The translations under genes and the position numbers were made by a program. The notes beneath the pieces were generated by a model that ran no database searches, was not told where the DNA came from, and saw nothing but the letters and a program-made list of their open reading frames with translations. 23,689 bases of DNA from NCBI GenBank assembly GCA_000934665.2, contig KZ538298.1:62001-85689 (forward strand), read 5' to 3'. The DNA is from Catajapyx aquilonaris. Its lineage: Eukaryota. How positions within the stretch are numbered: the first letter of the stretch is position 1; each line of letters begins with the position of its first letter. This document shows, one piece after another, positions 4,114 through 22,310 of the stretch.

Positions 4114-18347
<14,234 letters not shown>

Positions 18348-20655
18348 CTACCAGTGGTGGACGTGGACGAAGACTATGAGGAAGGGGAGGAAGAGGAGGA
18401 GGAAGATGAAGAGGAGAGAGAGGATAGGCGAAGGGAGGAAAAGGTGTGATTGCAGTTTTCTTTTTCCCTGGAAAGGTCAATTCTTTTTTGGTTTGCCTCG
18501 TCCACTGCGTATTCAAGGGAGGTAGAGGAAAGCATTGTGGGACATGAGACGTGAGTAGTGATTTCGCTCTTTATGTTGTTTCCCTGACCCCACCCCAGCA
18601 ACTCCACACTTTTTATTGGTGAATTTATTAAGGATATTGATACCTGGCAAGACGTGGGACAGGAAGGTACCCAGGAAAATATTTTGGCTTTGTTGTTAGT
18701 GACATCCCAAAAAATGTATGTAAATACTTGGAAGAACCTCCTTTATTTTCTCCCTCATGTAATTTGGGGGTGATTTAAGGCAGAAGTTGAAAAATTTGGT
18801 TTATTTTGTTTCTCTTTTGATTGACCATTGGGTTATGTTTTGGACAGCCACACAAACACGCAGAACACCCTTATCCTGTGCCCGATTTACAATGCATGTA
18901 GTGTTTGATGTGACAAAAGGAAAAAAAAAGAACATTAGTGCGCTGATCATATCCGTGGCATCATTTGATTCCCGGCTCCCTACTACACGACAAAGTGCAA
19001 GTGATTTATACATTTTTGCTTTCATTTATTAATTAACCATTCAGAGACTCAGTTCTGTGACCCTTTCCCCTGCATAATGTTGAACCCGGTTAGCCTGCAA
19101 CTGTCTTATTTATTACTTATAATTTTTGGCCCCCTCATGGTCCCTGTGTATAGTGTTACGTACATGTTAATTATAATGTTGGAGGGGATCATAACAGAAC
19201 TGGACTGTGTAAGCAGGCTTGCATTGTTTTTTTCCCAAATTAATTTTTTTTTGTATTTGTGATGTAGTTAATGCTAACTTTTAAAGTGGTGTCAATTTTG
19301 ACCTCACTTGACCCTCTCCCTTTGCCATCCCCCCCCCCTCCCCCCAATCCTTTCCATCCTGATCCTCGCACTTATGGGGAAAAAAAGCTTCATACTTAAC
19401 AGCACTGTGGTCCTCTTTTTTGATGTTGTCAGCTGTGCAAGAAAATAAATATGTATACAAAGTTTAAAAAATGAGGTCACATTTTGTTAGCATTTGTTGG
19501 GGAAAGTTTTTGATGTCCACTGCTCAAAATAACAGAACAACAAAGAAAAATGGCCACTTCAGTTCCTTCCTAGGGAAGGATTCAGGCAGACTTGAAGTGC
19601 TTTCTTGTTTTCTTCTTTTTCAACAAATATAAACAAATAGATGAATAAAAAGGATCAACATGGGGGAAATGCAGGGTTTTATTTTTTGCTTGCCTGTTTT
19701 TTTAACTTTGTGATCATGTGTACAGGGAAAAAAATATTGTTGTTTACTGAACTGCCCCCTTTTATCCGAATCCTCTCCCTCCCAACAACTAGTAGGAAGA
19801 AATAACAGCACTTTTTTGATGCGGAAGGCAATATAAACAAGAAGCACTGTTTTGCTTTTCACACACACACAAGAATAACAACACTGGAATTTTTTCTAGA
19901 AAGAAGCCAAGTTGGTTTTTTTCATCAGTGTTTTACTGTGTCCTGTTGTTGGTTACTTAGTGGAAGGACTCCTTTTCCAAAAAAAATGGCCTTTTTGCAT
20001 TAAAGATGATGAACAATGGTTCTAGACAGCTTGACTTGAGGAAACAATATCGCACACGTGTTGTTGCATGTTGATGAATTTAAAACTTTTAAAAATGCGA
20101 GAACCGAGCAGCATTTAGTATGTGATTTATAAACGTCTGTATCTGTCTTGAGCCTACCCAGGAGATAAAAATAACACGAGAAAAAGTAATTTAGTGGCTA
20201 GAGTGGCTTTGTATACTTTTCTGCCAAAGTTGCAACAACAAACAAAAATAATGCTGATTACCCATTCTATTGTTGAGGTCACTGGTGTTTAGGAAAATTA
20301 TGAGTAATGTATGGTAATATTTTGTTGGCCTTCCTTTGAGGAACACCTTTCATGTTGCGGTAATCTTAAAACTATTTGAGAGCATCGTGTAACTTATTGA
20401 CTTTTTGTTGAAATTTTTTTTTTCTCTTAATCCTTTAGTAAGAAAGTTTAGTACATAATGAATAACTTCATAAAAGATTTAACTCATCAAACCATACCCT
20501 ACCTTACCCACTCCTGTTGTAGATATGAATTCCCACTCGCTTGTAAAAATAGTGATTTGAGGTTGTATTTTATTATCGTGGTAATCAATTTCTGGTGGAA
20601 GTTTGAGTCTGGGTATTTGAGTGTAGTGTCAAGTTTATAAATAATGGAAAATAAA
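18348..20655 (+). other. probable par-1 3'UTR with candidate poly(A) signals
   Basis: AU-rich non-coding sequence with AATAAA at 19444, 19644 and 20650, and a Pumilio-type TGTAAATA at 18719-18726. The true end is unknown. Confidence 0.5.
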
Positions 20656-21979: not shown

Positions 21980-22251
21980 ACCGAAGCAGTTTGGAGTAGG
22001 GGATATGGTGTCCGACTGCTAATTGGGAGGTCCTGGGATCAAATCCCGGGGCCGGCAACTCTGACCGTGGTTTTCTGTGGTTTCCCACGGTCTTTCCAGG
22101 AAAATTCTGGAGTTGCTTCCGTAATTAATAGGCCACAGCCGCTTCCTTCCGTCCCTACCATATCCCAAAGGGCACAGTAAAATGAAAGCAAAGAGTTCCA
22201 GGCAAAACAAACTTCCCCCCTAAAGAGCCGATGGCTGATAACGGGGTATGA

Positions 22252-22310
<59 letters not shown>
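21980..22310 (+). mobile_element. tRNA-derived SINE with (ATT)n tail
   Basis: 14-bp TSD TATACTCTCCCTTA (21966-21979, 22311-22324); A-box-like TGGAGTAGGGG (21992-22002); B-box-like GGATCAAATCC (22036-22046). The body GGTTTTCTGTGGTTTCCC...AGGCCACAGCCGCTTCCTTCC is typical of insect SINEs. Confidence 0.92.

Follow-up and report, generated by a model that had tools for sequence, protein, structure and literature searches.

In this study, we report that the par-1/MARK gene in a 23,689-nucleotide stretch of the genome of Catajapyx aquilonaris (contig KZ538298.1, positions 62,001 to 85,689; hereafter the window, in whose own numbering all positions are given) ends in a stop codon that is probably subject to programmed readthrough selected in this lineage, a reading to which we give a probability of about 0.8. 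The stop context, the open frame behind it, the presence of both on a spliced mRNA and the conservation of the context in other lineages are direct observations. The leaky context has been kept in distant relatives, usually together with an RNA stem, so that some ribosomes very probably continue and append an acidic tail beside the membrane-binding domain of the kinase. The coordinates of the features are provided in Table 1.

Table 1. Features at the par-1/MARK locus and around its stop codon, in window positions.
Feature	Position	Strand	Basis
par-1/MARK coding region (kinase, UBA, linker, KA1), ~15-16 exons	4114..18347	+	Pfam, tblastn
Last coding exon (KA1)	18129..18347	+	KA1 E 5e-21; GT..AG intron from 17051, run X1 contig
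Putative leaky stop and context, TGA CTA CCA	18345..18353	+	Sequence; conservation in orthologous loci
Candidate readthrough extension, 33 codons, 20 D/E, net charge -15	18348..18446	+	Translation; spliced contig of organism A
5' arm of predicted long-range stem (core 18354-63), 6 nt past the stop	18354..18371	+	Fold prediction
Predicted inner hairpin (18410-31/18450-69) whose loop holds the second stop	18410..18469	+	Fold prediction
Second stop TGA, context TGA TTG, not leaky	18447..18449	+	Sequence
Third in-frame ORF, 34 codons + TGA, holding the 3' stem arm	18450..18554	+	In-frame resemblance (weak) to the L042 extension near its end
3' arm of predicted long-range stem (core 18499-508), 135-nt loop	18492..18508	+	Fold prediction

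Pfam matches in the gene were Pkinase, a UBA-type domain (below the cut-off) and KA1; together with the linker and a C-terminal KA1 ending in ELKL, this is the architecture by which par-1/MARK is identified, and tblastn segments of named insect par-1/MARK proteins spanned positions 4114 to 18344. The last exon encodes the C-terminus ANELKL, followed by the TGA and by CTA CCA. The first-pass annotation of this DNA had described a TGA CTA stop after ELKL, 33 open codons and a second TGA, all of which were confirmed in the sequence. In a quick, provisional 56-row protein tree (SH-aLRT support only), which holds no non-neopteran insects or named crustaceans and in which loci L042, L059 and L039 are not placed, the window protein grouped with 17 named neopteran insect proteins (96) but fell outside them (87), with the loci L001, L008 and L009 grouping next (88); a separate 30-row clade consisted of TAA, TAG and TGA-A loci. 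By this placement the organism is an insect or a near relative of insects, probably from outside Neoptera.

The orthologous loci were chosen by the KA1 exon only and are therefore unbiased for the sequence past the stop: a metagenome scan gave at least 592 pattern matches, of which 202 were confirmed and the best 80 kept. TGA CTA was found in 11 of these best 80 loci, belonging to four lineages, and TGA CTA CCN in 10, in line with the conservation proposed as a check in the first-pass annotation, and CTA followed none of the TAA or TAG stops among the same 80. When the window was excluded, TGA CTA was present in 5/30 TGA clusters at 95% exon identity and in 4/22 at 90%, against a CTA background of 0.016 (P ~1e-4 and ~4e-4, respectively, if the clusters are independent). 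With the window included and at 90% identity, there were 23 TGA clusters, among which all five TGA-C clusters were TGA CTA, and no TAA/TAG cluster had CTA. Exon identity between the window and the TGA CTA loci was only 77-84%, yet AAA CTG TGA CTA CC was nearly invariant. Among the TGA CTA loci the CTA codon did not vary at all and the second codon varied synonymously (CCA/CCG/CCT/CCC); the seventh base, following UGA CUA, was C and not G in the window and in all 11 loci. By a Jungreis-type comparison, the first stop was fixed (TGA in 11/11 CTA loci) and the second one switched between TAG and TAA. Shared ancestry, rather than independent origin, is the likely source of the common TGA CTA. The trait is not universal, since 40 of the 51 WEIEV-type loci lacked it.

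Four of the 17 listed sequencing runs were compared with the window, X9-X17 (share 0.04, including four tick-metagenome rows, one study) being left out. In run X1 (organism A), a 4687-nt contig in which 17051 is spliced to 18129 across a GT..AG intron carries the exon, the stop and the downstream sequence on one record and keeps the TGA; it has exactly 65 letters where the alignment skipped 65 low-complexity letters. This contig bears on the proposal of another route to the extension (A-to-I editing that turns UGA into UGG, selenocysteine insertion or splicing around the stop), which we regard as extremely improbable. In a 400-nt fold the stop itself is paired (18345-51 with 18509-15, P 0.4-0.7), a predicted duplex that could serve as an ADAR-like substrate and that a ribosome at the stop would melt. 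Against editing and splicing, the contig had 0 differences over 18127-18353 and showed no further joint, although contigs hide minor variants; against selenocysteine, an Rfam scan gave no match at gathering score, and no SECIS was present among four weak, chance-level matches (to E 5) in 18300-20600.

In organism C, the segment 18353-18419 spans 68 nt, versus 65 in the window, which is an in-frame gain of 3 nt with the GA tract inside the segment; a length change that keeps the frame is a 1-in-3 event by chance. All four listed indels of this organism are single-base ones at 18565-18606, past the second stop and the third (18552-54); its letter-by-letter comparison covers 40 of 84 differences, which lie at or before 18299. 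For run X6 (organism B), none of the 25 listed differences is located past 18296, and at most two unlisted ones are near the piece ends; this is a weak hint only, the 5' end of the exon being equally clean. Run X8 (organism D) was discarded as uninformative, as it aligns only to 18349 and its upstream exon differs. Uncovered bins in X6 and X8 are no sign of absence.

The extension read in the window was LPVVDVDEDYEEGEEEEEEDEEEREDRRREEKV, and the predicted readthrough product would gain 34 residues, 20 of them D/E (net -15), behind a KA1 whose last 45 residues have a net charge of +5. The open frame is weak evidence by itself, as the first-pass annotation had already cautioned: when the 99 nt were shuffled with dinucleotides kept, 722 of 5000 versions were open as well (14%); of 287 downstream stop triplets, 38 had 33 or more open codons behind them; and frame +1 was likewise open. 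As stand-alone evidence for readthrough it was rejected. The shuffle result counts in favour of a reading without meaningful readthrough in this species, in which the context would be a relic or belong to some conserved element of the 3' UTR, with the open frame as a by-product of the GA-rich repeat, and the same reading gains from the conservation of the 3' UTR itself in organism C (34 differences in 297 nt) and from the low stability in the window of a local hairpin of the relatives' type (only -3.1 kcal/mol). We nevertheless hold it to be unlikely, because the exact context is kept, a significant stem occurs at the same offset as in the relatives, and the one change of length observed within the extension, that of organism C, is in frame.

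Regarding this stem, the helix proposed in the first-pass annotation, of 10 bp including two G-U pairs, was recovered in both the minimum-energy and the centroid folds, and its inward extension was also predicted, as pairing of 18365-71 with 18492-97. The inner hairpin proposed there (18432-40 with 18461-69) had a pair probability of ~0.01 and was rejected in favour of the one listed in Table 1. The predicted fold is a long irregular rod (18354-71/18492-508, 18390-98/18481-89 and 18410-31/18450-69). Folding of the whole region was marginal (z = -1.78, with 9/200 shuffles equally stable). When the 5' arm was fixed (+7..+31), an equal duplex was obtained in 0/1000 shuffles of 150 nt and 4/1000 of 220 nt, and with wider targets in 8/1000 (18450-18650) and 27/1000 (1 kb); the long-range stem of the window is better than chance. 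With the stop and 6 nt kept unpaired, its pair probability was 0.8-1.0 when the fold ended at 18510-18550, 0.04 when it ended at 18650 and 0.7-0.8 when it ended at 18750, that is, high in four of five folding ranges, the value varying with the range chosen. The predicted stem starts 6 nt after the stop, within the ~6-12 nt of type II readthrough sites, and the stop has the UGA-CUA/CGG context of this class.

Hairpin folding in the orthologous loci was carried out on 56 representatives, L060 being left out as too short. At +7..+60 the median z was -2.29 in seven TGA CTA loci versus +0.19 in 48 others (Mann-Whitney p 1.7e-4, with loci that are not independent). Five of the seven had hairpins with z from -1.8 to -3.3, starting 7-12 nt past the stop, and two L009-type loci of the L001 group folded weakly (z -0.56 and -0.44). 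Covariation, which had been suggested as a check on the stem, was not significant in the L001-group hairpin (62/500 shuffles). Most TGA CTA relatives thus have a local hairpin, whereas in the window the 3' arm lies past the second stop. In L042, the 3' arm occurred as a tandem duplicate (49-63 past the stop), which allows two alternative stems that differ by no more than 1.6 kcal/mol.

From the shared context and stems, the window stop is likely to be a type II site (UGA-CUA plus 3' stem) inherited from an old arthropod ancestor, and we lean, with less assurance, towards stimulation of readthrough by its long-range stem. The part of the first-pass proposal that stood is the combination of UGA-CUA with a 3' stem, seen as TGA CTA CCN with a stem in distant orthologues and joined by a published fly orthologue; readthrough in the window species is what we infer from it.

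The alphaviruses VEEV and SINV and, in Drosophila, kelch and headcase resemble the window in having UGA-CUA and, nearby, a stem of 10-14 bp with a loop of 100-270 nt (PMC3159437). VEEV has a spacer of 8-9 nt, a stem of 11-12 bp and a loop of 101 nt, and SINV a loop of 154 nt; the window has 10 bp plus the inward extension, a 135-nt loop and a spacer of 6 nt, versus 8-12 there. In these type II cases synonymous-site conservation and mutagenesis speak for the 3' arm, which is located in coding sequence (PMC3159437), unlike the 3' arm of the window, which lies past the second stop and is a prediction. The vertebrate genes AQP4, MAPK10, OPRK1 and OPRL1 share UGA CUA, which is described as universal in them, but differ in that the seventh base is G (C in the window) and that 12 downstream nucleotides suffice, with no stem (PMC4132726).

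Readthrough of par-1 is already known in Drosophila, as a row of genome-wide tables. One table of readthrough genes gives the Drosophila extension a PhyloCSF score of 654.90 and a predicted NLS (PMC3840789); in another, the par-1-RA row has TGA-C, 232 codons and no RNAz structure entry, and the Anopheles par-1 stop is scored as not orthologous and is unmarked as readthrough (PMC5100048). A preprint places Drosophila par-1 in tier 2 of conserved readthrough, with the context TGA CTT; in its S2R+ screen, noisy and with poor replicate agreement, the high-signal bins showed no enrichment of the fly par-1 inserts (+-63 nt), which were assigned to the 'around stop' class, without conserved structure (PMC13278127). 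As far as these table entries go, Drosophila par-1 (FBgn0260934) is alike in being the same gene, with UGA-C directly after KA1, Leu as the first residue and an annotated conserved readthrough, and different in having TGA CTT, 232 codons, a predicted NLS and no conserved RNA structure called, where the window has TGA CTA CCA, a 33-aa polyacidic tail and a predicted long-range stem. In the literature covered, from which most subscription journals and some supplements are absent, no paper was found that deals with readthrough of par-1 in organisms other than Drosophila or with what the extension does.

The extensions of the orthologous loci were LPVGSEHSDSEHD, LPVGSDDFDSEHD, LPAVSDDNDWEHY, LPAVSDDYDWERY, LPVLEGACSEDEGSMPPPPSTAPSRG, LPVMEGCSCEHVALPPP and LHTENLSLNA. 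Preservation of the frame, another check set by the first-pass annotation, was observed in part: L001, L008, L009 and L046 have a 13-codon extension without gaps and a second stop at the same place that switches between TAG and TAA, with 26-36 of 39 nt identical in the extension versus 14-27, with gaps, directly past the second stop, and organism C has its gain of 3 nt, but L034 has a 1-nt deletion in the extension (1/11 CTA loci). The synonymous bias expected by the same annotation was absent from the L001 group, in which codon changes were 1:3, 1:2, 1:7 and 3:6 (synonymous to nonsynonymous); only L042/L045, with 2:0, agreed with it.

Additional tails came from database proteins in which gene callers had read TGA as W and thereby exposed the residues past the stop, 53 distinct tails from 67 proteins. 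The first tail residue was L in 14 of 15 WEIEV-type versus 1 of 31 WEMEV-type tails, with seven untyped (4 L); this set leans to L because the queries contained W-L-P, and the count of 14/15 precedes the later additions P0290 (L), P0304 (scored WEIEV, T) and P0305. Further tails beginning L-P-V/L were those of P0122, P0123 and P0124. Fly-type proteins (ending in KIAYDLRL, like Lutzomyia P0002) have long variable extensions, and P0007, P0039, P0138, P0168 and P0305 share a YNxIxxSLLRTTTL end after variable linkers; among other fly-type proteins, P0164 ends in TTSL and P0175 and P0290 have no TTTL end. Judging from these sequences, there is protein-level selection on a par-1 extension, in the fly-type lineage and on another sequence than that of the window. 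The TTTL end is one that we take to be class I PDZ-ligand-like. P0305 has its extension linked directly to KA1 and lacks the W there, which may reflect an artefact of the gene model or a sense version.

It must be considered that the readthrough may be real and the sequence and charge of the tail incidental, with selection for any addition that disturbs KA1 or for a lineage-specific docking end, and with the acidity derived from the purine-rich 5' arm and expansion of the GA repeat. This reading rivals the functional step only, and we judge it a strong contender, somewhat short of even odds. It is favoured by extensions that range from 9 to >200 aa and do not align past L-P-V, by the absence of synonymous bias in their codons, by W-tail proteins without any acidic residue (P0127, P0128 and P0131), by an excess of net-negative tails that is modest (12/18 vs 9/27, p 0.02), and by the fly tails, which carry a predicted NLS or the conserved TTTL end instead. 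Against it, all seven locus extensions scored were net acidic (-1 to -5), as is the window (-15), despite differing hairpin sequences.

The first-pass annotation had also suggested a PDZ ligand at the end of the window extension. Class III PDZ ligands end in D/E-x-hydrophobic, a pattern that E-K-V fits. This end was absent from 7/7 orthologous extension ends examined (EHD, EHY, ERY, SRG, PPP and LNA occurred), and the suggestion has no support from conservation.

With readthrough at the window stop as the preferred reading, its course can be proposed as follows. When UGA occupies the A site, termination would be weakened by the CUA context, and the stem 6 nt downstream would sit at the mRNA entry channel and favour decoding by a near-cognate tRNA. 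A small share of the ribosomes, probably a few percent and possibly more in some tissues, would add one residue and 33 amino acids and stop at 18447. The position of the 3' arm past the second stop leaves the loop free, and it is filled with a GA-rich tract coding for Glu/Asp. The -15 tail would be tethered to the last KA1 residue, adjoining the basic lipid-binding and autoinhibitory surface. KA1 basic residues are described as serving lipid binding and autoinhibition alike, and worms whose PAR-1 carried a C-terminal GFP tag are reported as giving no fertile animals (PMC6451319). A tail next to a surface of such dual function could therefore give a long form with weaker cortex binding and less autoinhibition, which would constitute a small, cytoplasmic and more active pool of PAR-1. 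The acidic tail may mask KA1 intramolecularly, although we put this below even odds; any appended segment may do, since the tails vary. An AlphaFold2 model of the readthrough form (mean pLDDT 60.5, residues 72-91 <50, a helix at 94-104) was uninformative on contact between tail and KA1 owing to its low confidence.

The third in-frame ORF of the window has a likeness to the end of the extension in L042 and P0004 that is suggestive of a relation; 69/2000 shuffles reached the L042 score and 7/2000 the P0004 score, and there was no likeness to P0122. One explanation is that the second TGA is leaky too, which would yield a 68-residue extension to 18552-54. The likeness is in frame and at the 3' stem arm, and organism C has no listed indel before 18565; on the other side, the second stop, in the context TGA T, is not a leaky one, and the likeness, noticed post hoc, came only 4th-5th in a 2-kb DNA scan, is absent against P0122, is partly forced by stem pairing and could equally well be the fossil of a longer ancestral extension. 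Double readthrough in the window is therefore very unlikely. In L042/L045 (1298-1345) RWKLGPRRPWRFRH comes directly behind a second stop that reads TGA C, and the sequence of P0122 goes on with RRWPWRLL; double readthrough is possible in the lineage of these three. As for the stem, an ancestral hairpin loop may have been expanded with GAR codons, a new stop arising inside the loop. This history, suggested by the 3' arm of the window and the bases next to it, which resemble the end of the L042 extension in frame, is put forward tentatively.

Taken as a whole, the proposal that readthrough of par-1 is an old switch predating the winged insects, with a conserved acidic tail masking the basic face of KA1, and that in this lineage the 3' arm moved past the second stop and the loop expanded to a polyacidic tract, is doubtful as a complete account. 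If true, PAR-1 activity would be uncoupled from the membrane without a change of exons, and this would have been maintained over hundreds of millions of years. Among polarity kinases PAR-1 holds a central place, and its KA1 couples membrane binding to activation. The same leaky stop outside the sampled neopterans and in further lineages would make this one of the older cellular readthrough sites. Inside one gene family, the stimulatory stem has apparently changed from a local to a long-range one. The site is a short, testable cassette with a clear biochemical prediction.

Some additional traits of the locus were observed. The window segment 18419-18715 differs from organism C at 34 of 297 nt and is thus well conserved when set against the third-position divergence of the exon (19 in 221 nt), a sign that more UTR elements may be present; if colinear, the contig of X1 would end near 20350. 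Intronic contigs of X1 (17403-17628 and 17809-18056) had a depth of 2.6-3.1 versus 36.8 and may represent pre-mRNA, a retained intron or DNA. An assembly gap (a run of N at ~11720-11790) is intronic, and a microsatellite of the (AAC/AAT)n type is located downstream of the gene (~22240-22310). Finally, a frame-preserving microexon of 33 nt (16482-16514, AG..GT flanks) is spliced to 16943. Its 30 displayed bases were the same in organisms A, B and C, while the adjoining exons vary at many third positions, and the segment was absent from Diploptera P0011 and L001; it is probably an alternative exon under nucleotide-level constraint.
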